From: Pelomonas sp. Root1237
Lineage (GTDB): Bacteria > Pseudomonadota > Gammaproteobacteria > Burkholderiales > Burkholderiaceae_C
NCBI RefSeq assembly: GCF_001425055.1
Contig: NZ_LMDK01000012.1
Coordinates: 335,337 to 399,336, forward strand
Direction: 5' to 3'
Length of the DNA stretch: 64,000 nucleotides
A model generated the notes under the pieces. That model ran no database searches, had not been told where the DNA came from, and was given only the letters and a program-made list of their open reading frames with translations. This document shows positions 33,045 through 47,275 of the stretch, piece after piece. The translations under genes and the position numbers were made by a program. The stretch's first letter is position 1, and each line of letters opens with the position of its first letter.

Positions 33045-34328
33045 ATGATCCCTCGTCCCGTTGTCCAATTCCTGCCCTGGATCGCCGTCGGCTCGCTGAT
33101 GGGCCTGGCCTGGGCGGGCTGGCGGCTGCGCCTGGCCTGGCAGGGCCTGCAGGCTGCCCAGCGCGCCGCTCAGCTCGAGCGCGCGCTGCGCGAGTTCGGC
33201 GACCTGATGCGTGACGCCGACCTTCCCGAGGCCCATGTCCACGAACTGTTGCAGGCGCTGGCCGGCAACACCGGCCTGGCCACGGCGGCACTGCTGCGGC
33301 CGTCGCCCGGCGCGCAGGACATCGTCGTCGGCGAGCCGGATGCGAATGCGCTGGCCGGCCTGCAGCTGTGCGCCGATGGCGGCCGGGCGCTGGGCCCCGG
33401 CACCGACCATCACGCCGAGGAGCCTGACCTCTATCTGCCGCTGCGCGGCCGCGATACGGCCCTGGGCGCCGTCACGCTGCGCGGGCTGGGCACCGAGGCC
33501 TTGGCCGTGGACCAGCTTGCGCACGCCCAGGCCCTGTGCGACCAGATGGGCCTGGCCCTGCAGCGCCGCCGTGTGCAGGATGAGGCCCGGCAATCGGCCG
33601 AACTGGCCGAGACCCAGTCCACCCGCAACGCCATGCTGGCCGCGATCTCGCACGACTACCGCACACCGCTGGCGACCATCATGGGTTCGGCTTCTGCCCT
33701 GCAGACCCAGGGGGATCGGTTGACGACGGCGCAACGCAGCGAGTTGGCCAGCCGCATCGTCGACGAGACCGCCCGCCTGGTGCGACTGACCGACAACACG
33801 CTGCAGCTCGCTCGCCTGGGCGCGCCCGGCGTGGCGCTGCGCTGCGACTGGGAGTCGGCCGAGGAGATCGTCGGCGCGGCCCTGCGCCGCGTGCGCCGCC
33901 GCCCGGACGGCGAGCGCGTGAAGGCGCGAATCGAGCCGGAGCTGCCGCTGCTGTGGTGTGATGCGGCCCTGATGTCGCAGCTGCTGGACAACCTCATCGA
34001 CAACGCATTGAAGTACAGCCCGGCCGAAGCCGTCGTCGAGCTGGTCGTGCGCCGCCTTGGCAGCGAAGTGATGTTTGCCGTGCGCGACCGCGGCCCCGGC
34101 ATCGACCCGGCCTGGCGCGAGCGCGTCTTCGACGCCTTCCAGCGCGGCGACCTGGCCGCCTTTTCTCAGCGCCCACCGGGCTCGGGCGTGGGCCTGGCCT
34201 TGTGCCGCGCGATTGCCGAGGCCCACGACGGCGCCCTGAGCCTGCGCCCGCGCGGCCATGGCGGTTGCAGCTTCGAGCTGCGCCTGCCGTTGCGCGACGC
34301 GCCTGAGCTGCCGGAGGCCGCGACGTGA
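33045..34328 (+). CDS. Sensor histidine kinase resembling the C-terminal half of KdpD (single TM, HisKA plus HATPase); the KdpD N-terminal sensor and Usp domains are absent
   Basis: The H-box is ISHDYRTPLATIMG; N, G1 and G2 boxes are present. Its start lies 14 nt after the flotillin stop, and its stop overlaps the response-regulator start. Confidence 0.85.
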   Translation: MIPRPVVQFLPWIAVGSLMGLAWAGWRLRLAWQGLQAAQRAAQLERALREFGDLMRDADLPEAHVHELLQALAGNTGLATAALLRPSPGAQDIVVGEPDANALAGLQLCADGGRALGPGTDHHAEEPDLYLPLRGRDTALGAVTLRGLGTEALAVDQLAHAQALCDQMGLALQRRRVQDEARQSAELAETQSTRNAMLAAISHDYRTPLATIMGSASALQTQGDRLTTAQRSELASRIVDETARLVRLTDNTLQLARLGAPGVALRCDWESAEEIVGAALRRVRRRPDGERVKARIEPELPLLWCDAALMSQLLDNLIDNALKYSPAEAVVELVVRRLGSEVMFAVRDRGPGIDPAWRERVFDAFQRGDLAAFSQRPPGSGVGLALCRAIAEAHDGALSLRPRGHGGCSFELRLPLRDAPELPEAAT

Positions 34329-35011
34329 AACTGCTGCTTGTCGAAGACGACCGTGAATTGCGCGTGACCTTGCGCGAGGCCCTGGTCGTCGAAGGCTACG
34401 AGGTGCTGACCGCCGCTAGCCTGGCCGATGCCATGGCCCAGCTCGCTCACGCCGGCCATCTCGATGCCGTGCTGCTGGATCTGGGCCTGCCCGACGGCGA
34501 TGGTGAGGAACTGCTGCAGGCCCTGCGCCGAGAGCGCTCGACGCCGCTGATCGTCATTTCGGCCCGCCAGGTCGAAGGCCAGAAGATTCGCCTGCTCGAT
34601 GCTGGCGCCGACGACTACCTCGTCAAGCCCTTCGGCATCGGCGAGCTGCTGGCGCGGCTGCGCGTGGCACTGCGCCATCGCGGCACCGTTGCCCAGCCAG
34701 CCATCACCATGTACCGCCGCGCCGGCCTGGAAGTCGACCTGGCCGCCCACCGCGTACGTCGCGATGGCGCCGACGTGCGCCTGACGCCCACCGAGTTCAA
34801 GCTGCTCGCCCGCCTGGTGCGCCAGGCCGGCCAGGTCGTCACCCACCGCCGCCTGCTGGCCGACGTCTGGGGCGCGGACGCGACCGAGCAGACCCACTAT
34901 CTGCGCCTGTACATGGGCCAGTTGCGCGCCAAGCTCGAGGTCGAGCCGGCCGAGCCCTGCGTGCTGCTGACCGAGCCGGGCGTGGGCTATCGCATCGCCG
35001 AACCGAACTGA
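34325..35011 (+). CDS. OmpR/KdpE-family response regulator
   Basis: A receiver domain (LLVEDD...D) is joined to a winged-helix DNA-binding domain. Confidence 0.9.
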   Translation: MKLLLVEDDRELRVTLREALVVEGYEVLTAASLADAMAQLAHAGHLDAVLLDLGLPDGDGEELLQALRRERSTPLIVISARQVEGQKIRLLDAGADDYLVKPFGIGELLARLRVALRHRGTVAQPAITMYRRAGLEVDLAAHRVRRDGADVRLTPTEFKLLARLVRQAGQVVTHRRLLADVWGADATEQTHYLRLYMGQLRAKLEVEPAEPCVLLTEPGVGYRIAEPN

Positions 35012-35019
35012 TCCCGCTC

Positions 35020-35847
35020 ATGCAAGTCACCCACTGGATTCCCGTTGACGGCGCCGAGCTGGCCGTCGAATACCGCCCCCACGACGATGGCCGCGCACCG
35101 CTCGTGTTCCTGCACGCCGGCGTCACCGACAGCCGGTTGTGGGACGGCGCCATGGCCGCGGCTGCCGGGCAGCGCTCAGCTCTGCGCATCGACCGCCGCG
35201 GCTTTGGTCAGACGCGCGTGGCCGCCGCTCGCCCGCATGCCTGGGTCAGCGACCTGCGCGCCGTGCTGGACGTGCTGCGGCTGGACCGCGTGGAGCTGGT
35301 GGGCTGCTCGTTGGGCGGCCGCATCGCCATCGATTTCGCGCTGGCCTCGCCCGAGCGCGTGGCCGGCCTGACGCTGGTGGCGCCTGCCGTCACCGGCGCC
35401 CCCGACCCCACGCCCGAGCTGGATGCCGCCAGCCGTGAGTTGAACGACGCCACGCAGGCCGCCCGCGCCGCGGGCCAGCTCGACGAGGTCAACCGCCTGC
35501 AGGCCCGCCTGTGGCTGGACGGCCCCGGCCAGCCCGAAGGCCGGGTCGGCGGCGCCGCGCGCGAGCTGTTCCTGGCGATGAACCGCATCGCGCTGCACGC
35601 GCCGGCCATCGGCGAGTTGCAGCCCGCGCCCGACGCCTGGCCGCGGCTGGAGCAACTGGCCATGCCCACGTGCGTGGTGTGCGGCGACCTGGACCTGCCT
35701 TACCTGGTGCAGCGCTGCCGGCAGATGGCCGCGCGCATCCCTGGCGCGCGCCACGTGGCGCTGCCGGGGATGGCCCACCTGCCGTCGCTGGAAGCGCCGG
35801 AGGCCTTCACCCGCGTGATGCAGGACGCCGGGCTGCTGGACCGCTGA
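35020..35847 (+). CDS. Alpha/beta-fold hydrolase
   Basis: The nucleophile-elbow motif is GCSLGG. It sits 8 nt after the regulator's stop. Confidence 0.8.
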   Translation: MQVTHWIPVDGAELAVEYRPHDDGRAPLVFLHAGVTDSRLWDGAMAAAAGQRSALRIDRRGFGQTRVAAARPHAWVSDLRAVLDVLRLDRVELVGCSLGGRIAIDFALASPERVAGLTLVAPAVTGAPDPTPELDAASRELNDATQAARAAGQLDEVNRLQARLWLDGPGQPEGRVGGAARELFLAMNRIALHAPAIGELQPAPDAWPRLEQLAMPTCVVCGDLDLPYLVQRCRQMAARIPGARHVALPGMAHLPSLEAPEAFTRVMQDAGLLDR

Positions 35848-35851
35848 GGGC

Positions 35852-36631
35852 TCAGCGCGGCGGCTTCACGCTGGCCAGGTGCATGCCGCTGTCCAGCATC
35901 AGCAGCTCACCGGTCACCGTGCGGGCGCCGTCCACCAGCCAGACGATGGCTTCCGCCACGTCCTCGGGGGAGCAGGCGCGCTGCAGCGGCACGCCGGCTT
36001 CATAGGCCTTCAGGCCAGCCTCGTAGCCCTGTTGCCCCACGCCCTGCACGAACCAGCGTGACGTGATGAGGCCAGGGCACACGGCGTTCACGCGCACGGC
36101 GGGTGCCAGGGACCGGGCCAGGTGCAGCGTCATCGCGTTGATGGCGCCCTTGGACGCGATGTAGGGCATGGACGAGCCCACGCCCAAAGCGCCGGCCACC
36201 GACGATACGTTGACGATGCAGCCCTGCGCGGCTTTCAGCGCGTCGACGCAAGCCCGCACCATCTGGAAGCTGCCCAGCGCATTGACGGCCAGGATGCGCT
36301 GGAAGGTGTCGGCGTCCAGCGCGTCCCAGTCGGCCGCGGCGCCGAACACCGACACGCCGGCGTTGTTCACCAGTGCGTCGATGCGGCCCCAGCGGTCCAG
36401 CGCGGCCTGCGCCAGCGCGCGGCAGTCGCCGTCCTGCGCCACGTCGCCCTGCTTCACGAACACGTCGGACCCGGCCGCACGGCAGGCCGCGGCGCAGGCT
36501 GCGGCCTCGTCCGCGCTGCGCGAGTAGTTGATCAGCAGGTCGTAACCCCTGCCGGCCAGCATCAGCGCCGTGGCGGCGCCCACACCCGTGCCGCCGCCGG
36601 TGATCAGCGCGACCTTGCCTGCCGTAGCCAT
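35852..36631 (-). CDS. SDR-family oxidoreductase
   Basis: TGGGTGVG NAD-binding motif and a YxxxK catalytic motif. Confidence 0.85.
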   Translation of the reverse strand: MATAGKVALITGGGTGVGAATALMLAGRGYDLLINYSRSADEAAACAAACRAAGSDVFVKQGDVAQDGDCRALAQAALDRWGRIDALVNNAGVSVFGAAADWDALDADTFQRILAVNALGSFQMVRACVDALKAAQGCIVNVSSVAGALGVGSSMPYIASKGAINAMTLHLARSLAPAVRVNAVCPGLITSRWFVQGVGQQGYEAGLKAYEAGVPLQRACSPEDVAEAIVWLVDGARTVTGELLMLDSGMHLASVKPPR

Positions 36632-36682
36632 GCGTCTTCTCCAGTGGAATTGCGGCGGGTCAGTCCAGGACCCGCCGCCGCC

Positions 36683-38994
<2,312 letters not shown>

Positions 38995-38998
<4 letters not shown>

Positions 38999-39462
38999 GC
39001 GGCACCGCCTTCCAGGCCGGCGGCCGACTTGATGGCGCTGCGGATGCGCGTGTAGGTGCCGCAGCGGCAGAGGTTGCCGCTCATGGCCGCGTCGATGTCG
39101 GCGTCGGTGGGCTTGGGCTTTTGCTGCAGCAGGGCTGTCGCGCTCATGATTTGACCCGCCTGGCAGTAGCCGCACTGCGGCACGCCGAGCTTGACCCAGG
39201 CGTGCTGCACGGCCTGTCCGGTCTTGGTCGCGCCAACGCCTTCGATGGTCACGACGCGCTTGCCCGCCGCGGCGGACAGCGGCGTCTGGCAGGCGCGCAC
39301 CGGCTGGCCATCGAGGTGCACCGTGCAGGCGCCGCACAAGGCGAGGCCGCAACCGAACTTGGTGCCCGTCATGCCGAGATGGTCGCGCAGCACCCACAGC
39401 AGCGGGGTCTCGTCGCTGGCCTCTACCGTCATCGATTGGCCATTGATCTGCAATGTCGTCAT
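38995..39462 (-). CDS. (2Fe-2S)-binding small subunit of the Mo-hydroxylase
   Basis: Carries [12 protein letters not shown] and QCGYCQ...CRCGTY. Confidence 0.85.
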
Positions 39463-39557
39463 CGAAGTCTCCACGGGTCGGAAACGTGCGCGGAACCGGC
39501 GCATTCGGCTACAGCAGCCGCGAACGCTACACGTTTCCGGCCAAACGCGCTGGCGGC

Positions 39558-40325
39558 TCAGTGCGATTGCTCGTCCAGCATCTGCGCCAGCGCCTGCGCG
39601 AAGGCGTGGGCGTCGCCCGGCCAGCGCGCGCTGAGGTAGTGGCCGTCGCGGACCGTGAAACCGCGGCCGAGGTGCTGGGGCGTGTCGCGCAGCAGGGGTG
39701 GCGGGCCGGCGTCGAAGTCCCGCGGGCTGGCCAGCAATGACTGCACTTCGGTCTGCAGCGGTGTGGGATAGGTGCGGTAGTAGCTGCCCAGCCAGGCGGC
39801 CGTCATCAGCCAGGCCGTCATTTCCTGCTGCTTTGTCAGGCCGGTGGTTCGCCGGCCGTGCAGCACGGACTTGCCGTCGGCGCGCTTCGAGCGGGCCGCC
39901 AGCAGCACGCCGTGGCAGATGGCGGCGACCGGCTTGTCGGCCGCGAACTGCGCCGCCACCACCGCCTGCAGCCGAGGCGATTCGAGATAGACCTTCATGC
40001 CCGGCGCATGGCCACCGGGCAGCAGCAGGGCGTCGACGCTGCCGGCGTCGATGTCGTCATAGGGAACAGGTTGCCGGAACGCCTCGCTCTGCACCATCGC
40101 CGCATGCGCCTCGCGGGCCGTGGCATCGGCCCTGAGCACGGATTTCCAAGGTCCCAAGCCTTTGCCATCCAGCATGCGCGGATCAGCCTGGGCGGGGCGG
40201 CCGTCGGGCGTCGCGAAGCGGATGGTGTGGCCCCGTGCCGTCAGCAGCTTCCAAGGGATGCCTGCCTCGGAGGGGTCGTAGTCCTGGGCGGGCAGGGGGA
40301 TGAGGATGCGGGCCATGTTGAGCAT
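39558..40325 (-). CDS. DJ-1/PfpI-family (type-1 glutamine amidotransferase-like) protein
   Basis: [11 protein letters not shown] gives the nucleophile-elbow Cys context. It lies about 95 nt upstream of the Mo-hydroxylase small subunit on the same strand. Confidence 0.7.
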
Positions 40326-40398
40326 CCTAAAGACAGAAAGGTGCCGATGCTGCTAGGCTGCCCCGCGCCCGCCAGCGGTGGCGGAACGGGAGCGAGGC

Positions 40399-40893
40399 AT
40401 GGCGGAGTTGACGGTCAACGGCAAGCGGGTGCAGTTCGAGGCGGAGGCCGACACGCCGCTGCTGTGGGTGCTGCGTGAGCAGCTCAGCCTCACGGGCACC
40501 AAGTACGGCTGCGGCGTCGCCCAGTGCGGCGCCTGCACGGTGCACATCGACGGCGCGCCGGTGCGCAGCTGCGTGATGCCGGCTTCGGCGCTGACGACGG
40601 CGCAGAAGATCACCACCATCGAGGGCTTGGCGCCGAATGCAAGCCATCCGCTGCAGAAGGCCTGGGACGCGCTGGACGTGCCGCAATGCGGCTTCTGCCA
40701 GAGCGGCATGCTGATGGCCGCCGCGGCGCTGCTGAAGGCCAAGCCCAAGCCGACCGATGCCGACATTGACGCGGCCATGACCAACATCTGCCGCTGTGGC
40801 ACCTACAACCGTGTGCGCGCCGCCATCCACCTGGCCGCGGGCCAGGTGCAGCGCAAGCAGATCCCCATCGTCATCGAAGGGGGCCAGGCATGA
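40399..40893 (+). CDS. (2Fe-2S)-binding small subunit of a second Mo-hydroxylase (IorA-like)
   Basis: Carries [12 protein letters not shown] and QCGFCQSG...CRCGTY. It is a paralog of 38995-39462. Confidence 0.85.
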
Positions 40894-40964
40894 GTCCCGC
40901 ACGGCCGCCCGAAGGGGCTCAACTCCCGCTTGGCGGGACAGCGCGCAGCGCGAAGGGTGCACCA

Positions 40965-43115
40965 ATGAGCGCGGTTCTTTCCCGTCGAAGCTTTTTGCAC
41001 ACCACGAGCGCCGCCGCCGGCGGGCTGATGGTGGGCTTCCACGTGCCAGGCCTTGCCGAGGGTGAAGCCACGCCCGAGCTGAACGCCTGGGTGCAGATCC
41101 TGCCGGACGAGAGCGTCGTCATCCGCATCGCGCGCTCGGAGATGGGGCAGGGCACGCTGACCGGCCTGGCCCAGCTCGTGGCCGAGGAGCTGGAGTGCGA
41201 CTGGGCCAAGGTGAAGACCGAATACCCGACGCCGGGCCAGAACCTGGCGCGCAACCGCGCCTGGGGCAGCATGAGCACGGGCGGCAGCCGTGGCGTGCGC
41301 GAGTCGCACGAGTACGTGCGCAAGGGCGGGGCGCTGGCGCGGGCGCTGTTGATCCAGGCGGCGGCCAACCAATGGCAGGTGTCGGTGGTGGAGTGCACGA
41401 CCTCGGCGGGTTGGGTGGTGCATGCCGGCAAGCGCTTGAGTTACGGCCAGCTCGCCGCCGAGGCCGCCAAGCTGGCCGCGCCGGCCGACATCCAGCTCAA
41501 GCCGGCCAAGGAATGGACGTTGGCGGGCAAGCCGATGAAGCGGCTGGATACCCGCCCCAAGCTCGACGGCTCGCAGGTCTACGGCATGGACCTGCAGCTG
41601 CCCGGCATGCTGAATGCGGCGATCAAGGACTGCCCGGTCTTCGGCGGCAAGCTCAAGAGCTTCGACGCGGCGGCCATCGAGGGCCGGCCGGGCGTGAAGA
41701 AGGTGGTGAAGGTGGGCGACTCGGCCGTGGCCGTCGTGGCCGACACCTGGTGGCGGGCCAAGACGGCGCTGGACGCGCTGCCCATCGTCTGGGACGAGGG
41801 CGCGAACGTCAACCAGAGCAGTGCCGACACGGCCGCCACGCTGAAGGCCGGCCTGGACGCCGCCGAGGCCGCGGTGGGCAGCAGCCAGGGCGATGTGAAG
41901 GCCGCGCTGGCGGCTGCCGCGAAGAAGGTCGAGGCTGTCTACAGCTACCCGCACCAGAACCACGCGACGATGGAGGTCATGAACGCGACGGCCAGGTGGA
42001 CACCCGAGCGTTGCGAGGTCTGGACGCCGACGCAGAACGGCGAGGCCGCGCTGGCCGCCGCTGCTGAATCGTCTGGCCTGCCGCCCTCGGCCTGCGAGGT
42101 CTACAAGCTGCATCTGGGCGGTGGCTTCGGCCGGCGCGGCGCCGTGCATGACTGGGTGCGCCAGGCCGTGGCCATTGCCAGGGAGCTGCCGGGCACGCCG
42201 GTCAAGCTGATCTGGAGCCGCGAGGAGGACATGACCCACGGCCGCTACCACCCGGTCACGCAGTGCAAGCTGATGGCAGGCCTGGACGCGGCGGGCAAGC
42301 TGACGGCCCTGCACATGCGCATCTCGGGCCAGAGCATCATCGCGGGCATCTTTCCGCAGAACATCAAGGACGGGAAGGACCCGGTCGTCTTCCAGGGGCT
42401 GAGCGCCGGTGGCGCGGAAGGGGCGCTCGGCTACGCGGTGCCGAACCTGCTCGTCGACCACGCGATGCGCAACCCGACGGTGCCGCCGGGGTTCTGGCGC
42501 GGCGTCAACCTGAACCAGAACGCGGTCTATCTGGAGTGCTTCATCGACGAGGTGGCCCACGCCGCCAAGCGCGATCCGCTGGAGCTGCGCCGCGAGCTGC
42601 TCGCCAACTCGCCCAAGCACCTGGCCGTATTGAATGCCGTGGCGGCGAAGGCCGGCTGGGGCAAGCCACGAGCGAAGGGAAGATATCTGGGCCTGGCGCA
42701 GATCATGGGCTTTGGCAGCTATGTGGCGGCCTGCGCCGAGGTGTCGGTGAGCAAGAAGGGTGAGCTCAAGATCCACCGCATCGTCGCCGCCACCGACCCC
42801 GGCCATGCGGTCAACCCGCAGCAGATCGCGGCCCAGGTCGAGGGCAGCTTCGTCTATGGCCTGTCGGCGGCGCTGTTCGGCGAGATCACCGTCAAGGATG
42901 GGCGCGTCGAGCAGCAGAACTTCGACACCTACCCGGTGCTGAAGATGGAGCACATGCCGGCCGTCGAGACCATCGTCATGCCCTCGGGCGGCTTCTGGGG
43001 CGGCGTGGGTGAGCCCACCATCGCGGTGGCGGCCCCGGCCGTGCTGAATGCGATCTTCGCGGCGACCGGCAAGCGCATCAGGGACCTGCCGCTCAGCAAG
43101 AACAAGCTCGCGTGA
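40965..43115 (+). CDS. Xanthine-dehydrogenase-family molybdopterin-binding subunit (IorB-like) with a TAT signal
   Basis: Starts MSAVLSRRSFLHTTSAAAGGLMVG and contains SEMGQGTLTGLA. It is a paralog of 36683-38998. Confidence 0.85.
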   Translation: MSAVLSRRSFLHTTSAAAGGLMVGFHVPGLAEGEATPELNAWVQILPDESVVIRIARSEMGQGTLTGLAQLVAEELECDWAKVKTEYPTPGQNLARNRAWGSMSTGGSRGVRESHEYVRKGGALARALLIQAAANQWQVSVVECTTSAGWVVHAGKRLSYGQLAAEAAKLAAPADIQLKPAKEWTLAGKPMKRLDTRPKLDGSQVYGMDLQLPGMLNAAIKDCPVFGGKLKSFDAAAIEGRPGVKKVVKVGDSAVAVVADTWWRAKTALDALPIVWDEGANVNQSSADTAATLKAGLDAAEAAVGSSQGDVKAALAAAAKKVEAVYSYPHQNHATMEVMNATARWTPERCEVWTPTQNGEAALAAAAESSGLPPSACEVYKLHLGGGFGRRGAVHDWVRQAVAIARELPGTPVKLIWSREEDMTHGRYHPVTQCKLMAGLDAAGKLTALHMRISGQSIIAGIFPQNIKDGKDPVVFQGLSAGGAEGALGYAVPNLLVDHAMRNPTVPPGFWRGVNLNQNAVYLECFIDEVAHAAKRDPLELRRELLANSPKHLAVLNAVAAKAGWGKPRAKGRYLGLAQIMGFGSYVAACAEVSVSKKGELKIHRIVAATDPGHAVNPQQIAAQVEGSFVYGLSAALFGEITVKDGRVEQQNFDTYPVLKMEHMPAVETIVMPSGGFWGGVGEPTIAVAAPAVLNAIFAATGKRIRDLPLSKNKLA

Positions 43116-43480
43116 TGCGTGCGCTGCTGGCACTCGTGCTGACCGCCAGCGCGCATGCCGGCGACGTCGAGCGTGGCCGGGCGCTGGTGGCCGACCGCAC
43201 GCAGAGCCTGTGCCTGCTGTGCCATGCGCTGACGGCCTCAGGAGATGCCAACCAGGGCAATCTAGCGCCGCCGCTGGATGCAGTGGCGACGCGTTTGAAT
43301 GCGCAGGGCCTGCGCGATCGCATCGCCGACATGCGGCGCTTCAACCCGTCCACGGTCATGCCGCCCTTCCGCTCGACGGAGGGGCTGCGCGATGTGGCGC
43401 CCGCCTGGGCGGGCCGGGCGGCGCTGACCGAGCAGCAGCTCGACGACATCGTGGCCTATCTCGGCACGCTCGCGAAATGA
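43115..43480 (+). CDS. soxX: SoxX-like monoheme c-type cytochrome
   Basis: Signal peptide, the single heme motif CLLCH, and a C-terminus ...QQLDDIVAYLGTLAK typical of SoxX. The start overlaps the Mo-subunit stop (TGATG). Confidence 0.6.
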   Translation: MRALLALVLTASAHAGDVERGRALVADRTQSLCLLCHALTASGDANQGNLAPPLDAVATRLNAQGLRDRIADMRRFNPSTVMPPFRSTEGLRDVAPAWAGRAALTEQQLDDIVAYLGTLAK

Positions 43481-43887
43481 AGCGGCGCGAGTTCACGCTG
43501 GCCGCCGCGGCGCTTGCGCTGCTGCCGGAGGCTCGCGCGTCCGACGAAGTCATGCGTGCAGCCATCCGTGCCTGGGCCGGTCGCGACCCCGAGCCCGGCG
43601 TGCTGAAGATCGAGATGGCCGAGCTGGTGGAGAACGGCAATGCGGTGCCGGTGCGTGTGGCCGCCAGCGAGGCTGTCGTGGGCCTGGCGCTGTTCACGCC
43701 GCTCAACCCCGAGCCCGAGGTCGTGCATGTCGCCTTTGGCGCCAACAGCGACAGGCCCGAGTTCAGCACCCGCATGCGCCTGGCGCGCAGCCAGCGCATC
43801 GTCGCCGTCGCCAAGGCAGCCGATGGGCGCTGCTGGCAGAGCGGAGTCGATGTCATCGTGACCTTGGCCGCCTGCGTGGAGCCCTGA
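43477..43887 (+). CDS. SoxY-like carrier protein with a TAT signal and the C-terminal arm ...TLAACVEP instead of canonical GGCGG
   Basis: Starts MKRREFTL... (twin-arginine) on a SoxY-like Ig fold and ends in AACVEP. ATGA overlap with soxX. The ORF track lists 43480, but the ATG is at 43477-43479. Confidence 0.6.
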   Translation: MKRREFTLAAAALALLPEARASDEVMRAAIRAWAGRDPEPGVLKIEMAELVENGNAVPVRVAASEAVVGLALFTPLNPEPEVVHVAFGANSDRPEFSTRMRLARSQRIVAVAKAADGRCWQSGVDVIVTLAACVEP

Positions 43888-44210
43888 TGGCGACGCGCGC
43901 TGTCATCACCCTGCCTGCTGCCATCAAGGCCGGTGAGCCTTTCGAGGTGCGCGTGACCGTCGCCCATGCGATGGAGACCGGCTACCGCAGCAGCGATGAG
44001 GGTGCTCGCTTGCCGCGCGACCTCGTGCGCCGTTTTGAATGCCGGCTCGACGGCGAATTGGTCTTCGCCGCCGAGTTGTTCGCTGCTGTCTCGGCCAATC
44101 CCTATCTCGCCTTCTGGCTGCGTGCTGGCAAGCCCGGCGAGCTGAGCTTTGTCTGGCGTGGCGACAACGACTTCGAGCACCGCGAGACGCGGCCGCTGAC
44201 CCTCACGTGA
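43887..44210 (+). CDS. soxZ: SoxZ-like protein
   Basis: 107 aa with no signal peptide, as expected for a SoxY-piggyback partner. Overlaps on both sides (ATGA upstream, GTGA downstream). Confidence 0.6.
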   Translation: MATRAVITLPAAIKAGEPFEVRVTVAHAMETGYRSSDEGARLPRDLVRRFECRLDGELVFAAELFAAVSANPYLAFWLRAGKPGELSFVWRGDNDFEHRETRPLTLT

Positions 44211-44932
44211 GAACGGTCTGGCTGCTGCTCTGCATCGCGCTCACGGCCCACGCCGACGAGCGCCGCTCCGGCCGCGACACCATGAGCCCGGCCCTGCGCA
44301 CGCTGCAGGCCGACGACGCGCAGCATCCCGCCCAGCTCGCGCTGGCGCTTGGCAAGGAGCTTTGGAGCCAAGGCCCCAAGTCCTGCACGAGCTGCCATGG
44401 CGAGCCCGAGAAGCTGCGCGGCGTTGCGACGCGCTATCCCGCCTGGGACCAAGGCATGCTCGACCTGCCCGGGCGCATCCAGCGCTGCCGCGTGCGCCAG
44501 CAGCAGCAGCCGGCTTGGCCACCAGAGGCCGAGCCCCTGCTGGCGCTGGCGGCCCTCGTCGCTCAGCAGTCGCGCGGCATGCCGCTGGTGCCTCAGCGTG
44601 GCCCTGAAATGGAGAAGGCAGCGCAGCAAGGCCAGCGCTTTTACTCAACCCGCATTGGCGCGCTCAATCTCTCCTGCGCCCAATGCCATGACGAGCGCGC
44701 CGGCCTGCGCCTGGGCGGCAGCCTGATTCCCCAGGCCCATGTCGACGACTACCCGGTCTACCGCCTCGAATGGCAGTCCCTGGGCAGCCTGCAGCGCCGC
44801 CTGCGTGGCTGCCTGAGCGGCGTGCGCGCGACAGTGTGGGACTGGGACAGCGCCGAACTGCTGGCGCTGGAGGTGTATCTGTCGCGCCGCTCGGCTGGCA
44901 TGGCGATGCAGCCGCCGGGTGTGCGCCCCTAA
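44207..44932 (+). CDS. soxA: SoxA-like diheme c-type cytochrome
   Basis: GTG start; signal peptide VRTVWLLLCIALTAHA; two heme motifs (CTSCH, CAQCH); and RRLRGC, consistent with the SoxA Cys ligand context. Confidence 0.6.
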   Translation: MRTVWLLLCIALTAHADERRSGRDTMSPALRTLQADDAQHPAQLALALGKELWSQGPKSCTSCHGEPEKLRGVATRYPAWDQGMLDLPGRIQRCRVRQQQQPAWPPEAEPLLALAALVAQQSRGMPLVPQRGPEMEKAAQQGQRFYSTRIGALNLSCAQCHDERAGLRLGGSLIPQAHVDDYPVYRLEWQSLGSLQRRLRGCLSGVRATVWDWDSAELLALEVYLSRRSAGMAMQPPGVRP

Positions 44933-44976
44933 CAAGCAGGGTGACTGTTACACCGCGTCCTTCCTAGTATGGGGCC

Positions 44977-45774
44977 ATGGCAGTCACGACAACAAGGCGC
45001 GAACCGACACTGGAGCGTCTGCGGCTGTCGGTGGGCGAAGCGCTGGTTTTCATCGACCTGGCCAGTGGCGACCTCATCACGACGGGTCTGCGCTGCAGCC
45101 TGGTGCAGCGTGGCGGTGGCCGGCTGCTCGGTCGTTCGGTCGTCACGCCGTCGGGCCTGCATGTGTGGCCGGACCTGCCCGAGCGCTGGCGCCAACCGCA
45201 GGAGGGCGTCTGTGCCGACGTGCTGGTGCGCGATGAACTGCAGCGTTTCCAGCCCCTGAACCTGCCCTGGCCGCTGCCGGTCCGACCGGTGGGCCAGATC
45301 CTCAGTGACCGGGTGCTGGGAGGCATGCGCATGATGCGGGTGGGCTTGCTCAGCGCACCGACACGCAGGCCGCCGCCGGGTGTCTGCAGCGTCTACGGTC
45401 TGCTCACCTGGCAGGGCGACGGCGAGCCGGCGGCCTGGGCCCGCGTGTGCCTGATCGATGGCGAAGGCCGTGTGCACGAAGGCGCGAGCGATGCTGAGGG
45501 CAGGCTGGCCTTGCATCTGCCGCCGCCTCGCCCGGGCGGCGTCGGAGCGACAGTGCTGCAGGTCTTCGCCGATCCGGCGCTGGGCTTGGCTTCAATGGGC
45601 TTGGGCGCGCCCGATGTGATGGCCTTCGCCGACCAGCCGGCGGTGGTCGCGCTGGCCGACGTCGAAGGGCAGGCGGCTTTTGTGCCGGGCGTCGTGGCGG
45701 CGCACGAGCCCCTCATCCTCGCCAGTCATGGCCTGCCGCCCGCGCATCGCGAGCTGCGCCTGGTGCCTGTCTGA
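44977..45774 (+). CDS. Hypothetical protein with a carboxypeptidase-regulatory-like (transthyretin-like beta-sandwich) motif
   Basis: High GC3. VCLIDGEGRVHEGASDAEGRLALHLPP resembles the CarboxypepD_reg domain. It lies directly downstream of soxA. Confidence 0.4.
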   Translation: MAVTTTRREPTLERLRLSVGEALVFIDLASGDLITTGLRCSLVQRGGGRLLGRSVVTPSGLHVWPDLPERWRQPQEGVCADVLVRDELQRFQPLNLPWPLPVRPVGQILSDRVLGGMRMMRVGLLSAPTRRPPPGVCSVYGLLTWQGDGEPAAWARVCLIDGEGRVHEGASDAEGRLALHLPPPRPGGVGATVLQVFADPALGLASMGLGAPDVMAFADQPAVVALADVEGQAAFVPGVVAAHEPLILASHGLPPAHRELRLVPV

Positions 45775-45783
45775 CGCCGCGCT

Positions 45784-46476
45784 TCAGCGCTGTTCCAGCT
45801 GGCGCTTGCCGAACAGCACCTCGCGCGCCTTGTCGTCGGTCAGCGGCTTGCGCGCACCGGCCAGCACCTCCACGCCACGCTGCACGGCCGGGCGCTTGGC
45901 GATCTCGTCGAACCAGCCTTTCAGATGCGGGTAGTCGCCCATCTCCACGCCCTGGTTCTTCCAGGAGCGCAGCCACGGGAAGACGGCGATGTCGGCAATG
46001 CTGTAGTCCGGCCCACCGAGATAGGTGGCATGGGCCAGGCGCTTGTTGATGACGCTGTACAGGCGCTTGGCCTCGTTGGTGTAGCGATCGATGGCGTAGT
46101 CGATCTTCTCGGGCGCGTAGATGCGGAAGTGATGCGCCTGGCCCAGCATGGGCCCGACGCCGCCCATCTGGAACATCAGCCACTGCAGCACCTCGTATTT
46201 GCCACGCACGTCGGCGGGCAGGAACTTGCCCGTCTTGCCAGCCAGGTAGAGCAGGATGGCACCGCTCTCGAACAGCGAGATGGGCTGGCCGCCGGGGCCG
46301 TCGGGGTCGGTGATCGCGGGGATTTTGTTGTTGGGACTGATGGCGAGGAAGTCGGGTGCGAACTGCTCACCGGCGCCGATGTCCACGGGATGCACCCGGT
46401 AGGCGAGGCGGCACTCCTCCAGCATGATGTGCACCTTGTGGCCGTTGGGCGTGGGCCATGAATACACTTCAATCAT
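45784..46476 (-). CDS. Glutathione S-transferase (Nu-class, YfcG/YghU-like)
   Basis: Starts MIEVYSWPTPNGHKVHIMLEE and carries FESGAILLYLAGKTGKFLP. Confidence 0.85.
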   Translation of the reverse strand: MIEVYSWPTPNGHKVHIMLEECRLAYRVHPVDIGAGEQFAPDFLAISPNNKIPAITDPDGPGGQPISLFESGAILLYLAGKTGKFLPADVRGKYEVLQWLMFQMGGVGPMLGQAHHFRIYAPEKIDYAIDRYTNEAKRLYSVINKRLAHATYLGGPDYSIADIAVFPWLRSWKNQGVEMGDYPHLKGWFDEIAKRPAVQRGVEVLAGARKPLTDDKAREVLFGKRQLEQR

Positions 46477-46537
46477 TCGTCGCCTCCATGCGGTGTGCCT
46501 AGCAAGCAGGCCCCATTCTCAGACTTCCTCACGACTC

Positions 46538-47275
46538 ATGGTGGTAAAGCAAGTCAAGCACTGGCTCGTGACGCGCGCCAACGCGTCGCGCTGGCGTCCG
46601 ATCGAGGACTGGGCCGAGGCACGCGGGGCCGGATTCACGCAGACGCGGGACGGGTTGGGCTTCCTCGTCGAGCAGCCCAAGGCGTCGCCGGGGCCGCTGC
46701 GCATCGAATGGGGTGTGTCGCAGCGCAGCTATCTGCCTGGCTTTGAGCTGCGCATGCGCTGTGAGATGGGCCTGCACCATGACCTGCAGATGATGGTGCT
46801 GTGCCGGGCGCTGATGGAGAACCTTGAGCGTGCTGTCTTCGAGGCCTACACCGACACGCTCAAGACCCGCGTCGATACCGACACGCCGGAAGAGATGCGC
46901 TGGCTGGTGATGTTCCCCAAGTTCAACAACGCCGCTTCGCAGATGCTGCGCCAACGCTATGGGATCGTCGGCGTGACCAAGGATCTGACCGGCGCGTGGA
47001 TCGAGGGCGAACTCAGCGAAGCCCTGGTTCAGGCCAGCCAGGACCTGCTGCCCGAAGGCCATCCCTTCGTGCTGATGGCGATGCGCGGCAACCTCTACCT
47101 GCGCACCGAGATGAGCGAGGCCGACCTGCCCAGGCTGCAGGCCCTGGTGAAGCTGCTGGAAGTCGCAGCGCGTGAGGCGCAGCGCGTGAACGGGCGGCTG
47201 TCGGACAGCGGGGCCTGGCCGACGACGACGTCCATCGCCTGGACGCCCTCGACGCGCCCGGGGGATGTGACCTGA
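46538..47275 (+). CDS. Hypothetical protein
   Basis: 245 aa with high GC3 and no recognised family. Confidence 0.45.
   Translation: MVVKQVKHWLVTRANASRWRPIEDWAEARGAGFTQTRDGLGFLVEQPKASPGPLRIEWGVSQRSYLPGFELRMRCEMGLHHDLQMMVLCRALMENLERAVFEAYTDTLKTRVDTDTPEEMRWLVMFPKFNNAASQMLRQRYGIVGVTKDLTGAWIEGELSEALVQASQDLLPEGHPFVLMAMRGNLYLRTEMSEADLPRLQALVKLLEVAAREAQRVNGRLSDSGAWPTTTSIAWTPSTRPGDVT

Follow-up and report, generated by a model that had tools for sequence, protein, structure and literature searches.

A conserved gene module joining a predicted periplasmic xanthine-oxidase-family dehydrogenase to SoxXYZA-like proteins

Organization of the putative iorAB-soxXYZA operon in Pelomonas sp. Root1237

We analyzed a 64-kb stretch of DNA from Pelomonas sp. 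Root1237 (contig NZ_LMDK01000012.1), which as a whole is referred to as the window. Six plus-strand open reading frames (ORFs) at positions 40399–44932 were predicted to encode the two subunits of a xanthine-oxidase-family molybdoenzyme, IorA and IorB, followed by proteins resembling SoxX, SoxY, SoxZ, and SoxA of the sulfur-oxidizing Sox system. The SoxY-like carrier is designated SoxY' in this study. The six genes are as follows.

40399..40893, plus strand: iorA, small subunit of 164 amino acid residues with two [2Fe-2S] domains, without a signal peptide
40965..43115, plus strand: iorB, molybdopterin-binding large subunit of 716 residues with the twin-arginine translocation (Tat) signal MSAVLSRRSFL
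43115..43480, plus strand: soxX-like, monoheme cytochrome c of 121 residues with the heme motif CLLCH and a Sec-type signal
43477..43887, plus strand: soxY-like (soxY'), carrier of 136 residues with the Tat motif KRREF and the C-terminal arm VIVTLAACVEP containing Cys133
43887..44210, plus strand: soxZ-like, carrier partner of 107 residues, without a signal peptide
44207..44932, plus strand: soxA-like, diheme cytochrome c of 241 residues with a GTG start codon and the motifs CTSCH, CAQCH, and RRLRGC

The six ORFs and their tight packing were found as the initial annotation of this DNA had described them. Stop and start codons overlapped at the iorB-soxX (TGATG), soxX-soxY' (ATGA), soxY'-soxZ (TGATG), and soxZ-soxA (GTGA) junctions, and an alternative ATG of iorB at 40890 would overlap the stop codon of iorA. 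The third-position GC content of all six ORFs was 0.80–0.92, a bias typical of real genes in this genome with a GC content of 68%. Promoter and terminator scans of positions 39400–46600, which are uninformative for a genome of such high GC content, detected no promoter-like site and four terminator-like sites against 2.4 expected; three of the four were inside module genes, one was in an unrelated downstream ORF, and none was at a gene junction. Within this limit, the scans suggest no transcript boundary inside the putative operon. An Rfam scan of positions 35000–47000 yielded no molybdenum cofactor riboswitch or other riboswitch, and only a chance match to a small nucleolar RNA (E = 0.46) was obtained.

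Predicted properties of the molybdoenzyme and the Sox-like proteins

Profile searches with Pfam and NCBIfam assigned all six proteins to the families that had been expected of them. IorA matched Fer2 (1.2e-10) and Fer2_2 (6.4e-27), IorB matched MoCoBD_1 and MoCoBD_2, and none of the six proteins matched a family binding flavin adenine dinucleotide (FAD) in Pfam. The closest solved relative of IorB was the large subunit of the Gluconobacter membrane aldehyde dehydrogenase (8gy3_C), which was aligned over the full length with an E value of 8e-72. The RR motif of the Tat signal was kept in 73 of the 74 IorB orthologues, and the C-terminal GGVGEP motif, which presumably holds the catalytic glutamate, was invariant among the orthologues. 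From this subunit architecture, IorAB is predicted to be a xanthine-oxidase-family dehydrogenase with hydroxylase chemistry that depends on a terminal sulfido ligand of molybdenum (Mo=S). Characterized relatives of IorAB oxidize aldehydes, lactols, or heterocycles.

Among the Sox-like proteins, SoxX and SoxA scored above the cut-offs of their NCBIfam models (TIGR04485, 68.2 bits against 61; TIGR04484, 184.4 bits against 110). SoxZ matched PF08770 (2.6e-21; 75.6 bits against a cut-off of 25) and scored 65.8 bits with the equivalog TIGR04490, below its cut-off of 76. SoxY' matched PF13501 (4.8e-21). Its best NCBIfam model was TIGR04487, "SoxY-related AACIE arm protein," with 104.4 bits, below the cut-off of 172; it scored 68.1 bits with TIGR04488, below the cut-off of 125, and lacked the GGCGG arm. 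The initial annotation had named such an AACIE-arm family as a partial precedent; the family exists, and RefSeq uses its name for relatives of the carrier. The matches to SoxX, SoxA, SoxY, and SoxZ models exclude the alternative, raised in the same annotation, that these proteins are generic cytochromes and unrelated immunoglobulin-fold proteins.

The C-terminus of SoxY' is TLAACVEP, as read earlier, with AACVE at residues 131–135 in place of GGCGG. An AlphaFold2 model of SoxY' (predicted local distance difference test score, 92.9) had a SoxY fold, and its top Foldseek matches were SoxY structures 2oxg_Y and 2nnc_A. Low confidence was confined to the tail formed by the last six residues, 131–136, as would be expected of a flexible arm. 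Among 1.8 billion 50%-identity cluster representatives, 793 relatives of SoxY' were retrieved, and most of the best 150 of them had an xAC[IVLT][ED] arm, not GGCGG; the variant arm thus marks a large family. Carriers identical or nearly identical to that of the window were found in Roseateles/Pelomonas assemblies.

The heme-binding residues of the two cytochromes were strongly conserved in related loci. In SoxX, the CxxCH motif and the M82-P83 pair were invariant in 79 of 79 sequences, and we infer that M82 is the axial heme ligand. SoxA could be aligned with 1h31_A and 2c1d_A, and the alignment covered the cysteine of RxRGC as well as both CxxCH motifs; C60/C63/H64, C157/C160/H161, C202, R197, R198, and R207 were invariant in 78 of 78 sequences, and the heme-1 cysteine C94 was kept in 75 of the 78.

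Conservation of the module in Beta- and Alphaproteobacteria

To examine the distribution of the module, one genome per GTDB species was scanned with the arm pattern. The scan placed the AAC-arm carrier in no fewer than 597 species representatives (at least 597 loci). The best 80 loci were fetched and examined, with start codons set heuristically. Because the search pattern prescribed the SoxY' arm, its invariance among these 80 loci is not evidence of conservation. Comparison of the six window proteins with the 80 loci by tblastn revealed that iorB lies directly before soxX in 77 of the 78 informative loci and that iorA precedes iorB wherever the contig extends far enough. The soxZ gene was directly 3' of the carrier gene in 79 of 80 loci, soxA was present after soxZ in 77 of 78 informative loci, and the median intergenic distances in the module were −4 to 56 nucleotides. 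The exception for soxA was Piscinibacter defluvii (L071, 10438–13339), which has iorAB-soxXYZ with a convergent sensor kinase gene abutting soxZ. Locus L087 from a Rhizobacter metagenome-assembled genome (7801–9566) was the only examined locus with soxXYZA and an AAC arm and no iorAB within 10 kb; the upstream place was taken by genes for a divergent FccB-like flavoprotein and a small cytochrome (fccAB). Orthologues of IorA with 62–99% identity were found in 72 related loci. The identity of IorB to the window protein was 58–80% across related loci, whereas that of the Sox proteins was only 36–60%.

Within Burkholderiales, the carriers were found in Roseateles, Rubrivivax, Rhizobacter, Methylibium, Piscinibacter, Paucibacter, Pseudorhodoferax, Polaromonas, Pseudoduganella, Duganella, and Undibacterium. 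The module was also present in Rhodocyclaceae and, among Alphaproteobacteria, in Acetobacteraceae, Tagaea, and Reyranellaceae. The order iorAB plus soxXY'ZA was kept on RefSeq-annotated replicons of Methylobacterium, Neorhizobium, and Roseomonas. The annotated products of Methylobacterium NZ_CP087107 are, in order, "(2Fe-2S)-binding protein," "molybdopterin cofactor-binding domain-containing protein," "cytochrome C," "NAD(P)/FAD-dependent oxidoreductase," "SoxX," "SoxY-related AACIE arm protein," "SoxZ," and "SoxA." Neorhizobium CP090555 has the same product names, with the genes for the molybdenum subunit and the small cytochrome unannotated and the former located by tblastn. In the Roseomonas record, the carrier is named plain SoxY, and the cytochrome and flavoprotein genes follow soxA. 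Metagenomic contigs with the divergent arms AACTEE and GACADE also had the module order, and IorB of the GACADE-arm contig was only 43% identical to that of the window. Two Acetobacteraceae loci (L044, 3791–8121; L072, 3770–8106) contained two tandem iorB genes, 58–60% identical to the window gene product, between iorA and the cytochrome/FccB/soxXYZA genes.

All-against-all clustering of flanking ORFs showed that, apart from the six genes and SoxEF/FccAB, distant loci have nothing in common, and in particular no shared transporter or catabolic gene. A single gene order in 77 of 78 informative loci is far beyond chance, and its retention in both Beta- and Alphaproteobacteria excludes the one-off juxtaposition that had been considered at the outset. 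These gene orders show that iorA-iorB-soxX-soxY'-soxZ-soxA form one conserved gene module, the products of which are predicted to act in the periplasm.

Sulfur-related genes in and around the module

When Paracoccus SoxB, SoxC, and SoxG were used as tblastn queries, no match was found in the whole window, which bears out the initial annotation, in which no SoxB-like ORF had been seen after the six genes and no SoxCD in the window. The same queries had no match in 89 related loci, which extended up to 10 kb on either side, and the sole match of SoxD was the c2-type cytochrome of locus L089. A Pfam scan of ten other large ORFs of the window revealed unrelated families and no sox genes.

On the other hand, a SoxF/FccB flavoprotein with FCSD_central and FCSD-flav_bind domains was encoded in 15 loci. 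It matched the sulfide dehydrogenase 5n1t_A with an E value of 2e-126 and was 35–47% identical to Paracoccus SoxF. Its gene was often preceded by that of a small SoxE-like cytochrome, and its placement varied, being in the gap between iorB and soxX in several Alphaproteobacteria, after soxA in Roseomonas, and just downstream of the module in Pseudoduganella. These recurrent SoxF/FccB neighbors point to sulfur chemistry.

One explanation that would accommodate this sulfur context is that IorAB oxidizes a sulfur or other adduct that SoxXA has loaded onto SoxY', replacing SoxCD, and that release of the product needs no SoxB and proceeds, for instance, by exchange with a thiol or sulfide. We regard this explanation as unlikely but worth serious consideration. 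It agrees with the recurrence of SoxEF/FccAB, which in Alphaproteobacteria are encoded between iorB and soxX, and with the gene content of the SoxEF-bearing loci, which mirrors Paracoccus soxXYZABCDEF minus B and CD, as well as with the lack of SoxB or SoxCD within 10 kb of any locus. The carrier almost never occurs without iorAB, its arm differs from GGCGG as expected with a different partner enzyme, and the catalytic residues of SoxA and the cysteine of SoxY' are invariant, the latter in an arm fixed by the search pattern. However, a hydrolase for product release is absent from the loci, and we know of no xanthine-oxidase-family enzyme that oxidizes sulfane sulfur or a protein-bound substrate.

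Alternatively, the module may comprise two independent electron-donor systems that share regulation or an electron exit, namely a dehydrogenase acting on a free substrate and a minimal SoxXA-SoxY'Z oxidizer of sulfide or thiosulfate, which could, for instance, form tetrathionate via a carrier thiosulfonate in a TsdA-like manner. The occurrence of SoxXYZA and FccAB without iorAB nearby in L087 and the lack of conservation of other flanking genes are compatible with this arrangement. TsdA, which has a cysteine S-thiosulfonate intermediate, likewise belongs to the SoxA family (PMC4423706). However, the near-absolute adjacency, the fixed order in two classes, and the overlapping codons are hard to explain without coupling, and the carrier clade is specific to the iorAB context. 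Two separate systems therefore appear improbable.

Orthologues of IorAB without Sox proteins

IorB was compared by tblastn with 72,556 plasmid and chromid records of PLSDB. IorB with 60–80% identity was encoded in 35 records, below which the identity dropped abruptly to 43% or less. A SoxY-like tblastn search located the carrier on only four of these 35 replicons (one each of Methylobacterium and Roseomonas and two of Neorhizobium), and nine of nine other inspected replicons were without sox genes. The Sox-less IorB orthologues, with 60–68% identity, were from Sinorhizobium, Rhizobium, Agrobacterium, and Methylosinus. In Sinorhizobium and Rhizobium, the operon consists of genes for a c-type cytochrome, IorA, and IorB, in this order; in Agrobacterium, iorA and iorB are followed by genes for cytochrome c, XdhC, and a MocA-like transferase; and in Methylosinus OB3b, a multiheme cytochrome gene precedes iorA and iorB, with XdhC and nucleotidyltransferase genes alongside.

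A c2-type cytochrome gene was adjacent in eight of the nine Sox-less loci and in one of about 90 Sox-linked loci (L089). None was present in the window, where SoxX and SoxA stand in for the ordinary c-type partner of IorAB enzymes (c2-type or triheme). Genes for XdhC and MocA were adjacent in two of the nine Sox-less loci and in none of about 90 Sox-linked loci. SoxX was considered as a homologue of the cytochromes in the Sox-less operons, and this was rejected; the latter are class-I cytochromes of the c2 type, resembling the N-terminal half of SoxE. An arylsulfatase and a 650-residue multiheme cytochrome were encoded near the Sox-less operon of Methylosinus trichosporium OB3b (L098, 2242–6455), and a sorbosone-dehydrogenase-family protein was encoded near that of Sinorhizobium medicae (L104, 9250–10560). 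Such periplasmic neighbors of the Sox-less operons may hint at a free substrate.

The phylogeny of IorB was reconstructed by neighbor joining only, with 200 bootstrap replicates. Sox-less IorB sequences were monophyletic in 2 and Sox-linked ones in 0 of the 200 replicates, and the Sox-linked IorB of Acetobacteraceae was basal in 199. This pattern indicates that the Sox-less state is nested within the Sox-linked clade and arose more than once. Among the 169 IorB positions invariant in 22 Sox-linked copies, 149 were also invariant in all seven Sox-less copies, and the corresponding numbers for IorA were 47 of 53. No IorB position had a residue fixed in one group that the other lacked in this comparison of 22 with seven sequences, and residues separating Sox-linked from Sox-less IorB or IorA were sought without success, the partial differences tracking phylogeny. 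The molybdoenzyme thus appears to be one and the same whether or not the Sox proteins accompany it. The link between the two is one-way: the carrier almost always occurs with IorAB, and IorAB at times occurs without the carrier, in which case it has a plain cytochrome.

These results weaken the claim, made in the initial annotation, that the molybdoenzyme is wired to a carrier-bound adduct, since orthologues 60–68% identical to the window IorAB work without sox genes, are nested among the Sox-linked ones, and have no distinguishing conserved residues. We therefore give a rather low probability to a third kind of Sox-type pathway, in which the molybdoenzyme would act on a sulfur adduct held by the carrier and do the job of SoxCD, with SoxB unneeded. 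If it were true, IorAB would be the first xanthine-oxidase-family enzyme known to have a protein-bound inorganic-sulfur substrate, and it would occur in hundreds of heterotrophic Proteobacteria.

The cytochrome distribution also bears on an explanation by electron transfer only, in which SoxX and SoxA replace the c2-type cytochrome and SoxY'Z is structural or vestigial. The c2-type cytochrome and SoxXYZA are indeed complementary beside the same enzyme, and soxX is directly 3' of iorB with a stop/start overlap. However, all four sox genes are kept in 77 of 78 loci, and the SoxA cysteine and arginines and the SoxY' cysteine (in the search-fixed arm) are invariant in proteins that are only 36–60% identical. 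In addition, the His/Cys-ligated hemes of SoxA are generally known to have very low potentials and to be poorly suited to plain electron transfer. There is little chance, in our estimation, that electron transfer is the whole function of the set.

We also considered whether the thiol of SoxY' captures periplasmic aldehydes as thiohemiacetals for a molybdenum-dependent aldehyde dehydrogenase. Such a trap would have a parallel in the glutathione-dependent oxidation of formaldehyde, and IorB has a membrane aldehyde dehydrogenase as its closest solved relative. SoxYZ-like carriers are also associated with alcohol dehydrogenases dependent on pyrroloquinoline quinone (PQQ), and deoxyribose and vanillin are oxidized by IorAB-like enzymes (PMC6365646). 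However, the trap leaves no role for the sulfur-conjugating heme of SoxXA or for SoxEF/FccAB, the Sox-less orthologues manage without a carrier, and enzymes of the xanthine-oxidase type generally oxidize free aldehydes directly. For these reasons, an aldehyde trap is very improbable.

Proposed role of SoxXYZA as an accessory of the molybdoenzyme

SoxXYZA is probably a dedicated accessory of the molybdoenzyme and not a pathway for thiosulfate oxidation. IorAB itself probably functions autonomously on a free substrate, because IorAB-like relatives with cytochrome c have been characterized on free substrates. These are periplasmic dehydrogenases with a cytochrome c operon partner, which act on deoxyribose in Pseudomonas simiae and on vanillin in P. 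putida (PMC6365646). The nested Sox-less orthologues without separating residues likewise argue for a free substrate and indicate that SoxXYZA can be swapped for a plain cytochrome.

We tentatively propose the following mechanism, the whole of which, comprising an autonomous IorAB, an outlet through SoxX, and a carrier persulfide that installs or restores Mo=S, we put forward with limited confidence. The Tat-exported IorAB would oxidize a free small substrate, and electrons would leave molybdenum via both [2Fe-2S] clusters of IorA and reach a c-type heme, which in the Sox-linked module would be that of SoxX within a SoxXA complex. SoxXA would charge the carrier with a sulfur atom, giving SoxY'-Cys-S-S−; the retention of the cysteine-ligated heme of SoxA and of the arm cysteine of SoxY' suggests that the pair still loads sulfur. 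The source of this sulfur may be sulfide, aided by SoxEF/FccAB where present. The SoxY' persulfide would then be used in the periplasm to put in place or renew the labile terminal Mo=S ligand, which we take to be the most economical function for an arm-borne persulfide beside an enzyme of this class. To our knowledge, among molybdoenzymes, only the xanthine-oxidase family needs such a ligand. XdhC-type chaperones ordinarily introduce Mo=S while the enzyme is in the cytoplasm and would be unable to reach it once the enzyme has been exported. The conservation of SoxA, SoxY', and SoxZ is too strong for mere passengers. The proposed accessory function would account for the lack of SoxB and SoxCD, the change in the arm, the loss of the set without a change in the enzyme, the one-way link, and the SoxEF/FccAB neighbors, which would provide persulfide from sulfide. 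SoxYZ-like carriers are similarly attached to PQQ alcohol dehydrogenases, which are also non-sulfur periplasmic dehydrogenases, and an upkeep role has been suspected for these carriers (PMC12997753).

Several points weigh against the accessory function proposed here. The IorB trees are neighbor-joining trees only, and the contrast in XdhC comes from two lineages and lacks phylogenetic independence. Locus L087 keeps SoxXYZA with a divergent fccAB and no iorAB within 10 kb. Thiosulfate as a sulfur donor would need a SoxB-like hydrolase, and none is present within 10 kb. Four proteins in an apparently translationally coupled operon are heavy equipment for repair. The electron transfer from IorA to SoxX is deduced from gene position, and the Sox-less orthologues could differ in substrate through non-conserved residues. 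We know of no experimental precedent for periplasmic sulfuration of the molybdenum cofactor.

Relation to known systems

The module resembles the canonical Sox system, represented by Paracoccus soxXYZABCDEFGH (L090), in the X-Y-Z-A gene order, in SoxX and SoxA scoring above equivalog cut-offs, in the SoxY fold with a C-terminal cysteine arm, in the pairing of a Tat-signal SoxY with a signal-less SoxZ, and in the SoxE and SoxF relatives of some loci. It differs in that SoxB, SoxCD, and SoxGH are not encoded within 10 kb, the arm reads VTLAAC[VIL]E and not VTIGGCGG, the proteins are only 29–38% identical to those of Paracoccus, and a xanthine-oxidase-family enzyme accompanies the set (77 of 78 informative loci).

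Known IorAB dehydrogenases (8GY3 and the deoxyribose and vanillin enzymes; PMC6365646) share with the module a subunit with two [2Fe-2S] clusters, a Tat-exported molybdenum subunit, the lack of an FAD subunit, and an operon-encoded c-type cytochrome as the presumed acceptor. In the module, however, the cytochrome slot holds SoxX, SoxA, and a cysteine carrier pair, whereas the Sox-less orthologous operons of rhizobia have the ordinary cytochrome solution. The carrier agrees with the TIGR04487 family in its top model, its arm, and the RefSeq name given to the protein in the same operon of Methylobacterium and Neorhizobium; the difference is that the window carrier scores 104 bits against a cut-off of 172, and the family name carries no function. 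Since the family is already named in NCBIfam, variant carriers themselves are not new.

The PQQ-associated carrier is likewise of the SoxYZ type and dedicated to a non-sulfur periplasmic dehydrogenase, but it is a fused SoxYZ that occurs with rhodanese and SoxH-like hydrolases and without SoxXA. In the window, soxY' and soxZ are separate genes, and their products scored 42.0 and 34.6 bits, respectively, with the fused-SoxYZ model, the cut-off of which is 140. Sulfuration by XdhC, PaoD, and CoxF is generally understood to deliver persulfide sulfur for the formation of Mo=S, as proposed here, but it employs other proteins, takes place in the cytoplasm before export, and involves no heme proteins; a periplasmic version would be an extrapolation from it. 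Genes for XdhC and MocA flank the Sox-less orthologues in Agrobacterium and Methylosinus.

The module is real and widespread and apparently undescribed. A literature search returned no occurrence of the term "AACIE" and no relevant paper joining iorAB or xanthine-dehydrogenase terms with SoxXA or SoxYZ, and a large SoxY phylogeny paper left out sequences without "GGC." AAC-arm carriers of Roseateles and Roseomonas (e.g., L100, 9599–10039) are named "thiosulfate oxidation carrier protein SoxY" by NCBI/JGI, despite an arm other than GGCGG and scores under the SoxY equivalog cut-off. Because SoxX and SoxA pass the thiosulfate models and the carrier is often named SoxY, surveys can over-call Sox capacity in heterotrophs. 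The hosts of the module include plant-associated Methylobacterium, Neorhizobium, Roseateles, and Duganella relatives.

As a SoxYZ-type swinging-arm carrier that is probably dedicated to an enzyme outside sulfur lithotrophy, SoxY'Z offers a clean, testable case. Together with the PQQ-associated carrier, it suggests that the service role of periplasmic cysteine-arm carriers is broader than sulfur oxidation. Either upkeep of Mo=S or oxidation of carrier-bound sulfur, if true, would be new enzymology for the xanthine-oxidase family.

Genomic surroundings of the module in the window

A second iorAB pair, paralogous to the first, was found on the minus strand upstream of the module (iorA, 38995–39462; iorB, approximately 36683–38998), within a block spanning 35852–40325. 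The second IorB is 42% identical to the Sox-linked IorB, and the pair is without sox or cytochrome genes; it is followed by a gene for a short-chain dehydrogenase/reductase (35852–36631) and preceded by a DJ-1/PfpI gene (39558–40325). Comparison with Pelomonas sp. Root1217 (L008) suggests that the block was inserted between the module and a two-component system. The two-component system, a histidine kinase and an OmpR-type response regulator, is encoded on the plus strand at approximately 33045–35011. The same pair, with 80–99% identity, is directly upstream of iorA on the same strand in the Roseateles loci L008, L015, and L029, an adjacency that makes it a candidate regulator of the module. 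A conserved two-component sensor for the module in general was rejected; the pair is kept only within Roseateles, and the pair in Sinorhizobium differs.

Directly after soxA, a 265-residue ORF without a family match is located on the plus strand (44977–45774). Its homologue, for example, in Roseateles L011, is encoded between a Pvc16_N protein and Phage_sheath_1/T4 gp19 tube genes, the sheath and tube genes of L011 belonging to an extracellular contractile injection system. The ORF in the window appears to be a stranded remnant of such a system. A glutathione S-transferase gene lies near the module in the window (45784–46476, minus strand) and in L033, L046, L053, L065, and L088, and two such genes flank the Methylobacterium copy. 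This recurrence, which spans unrelated genera, may reflect chance or a link to thiol/persulfide metabolism.

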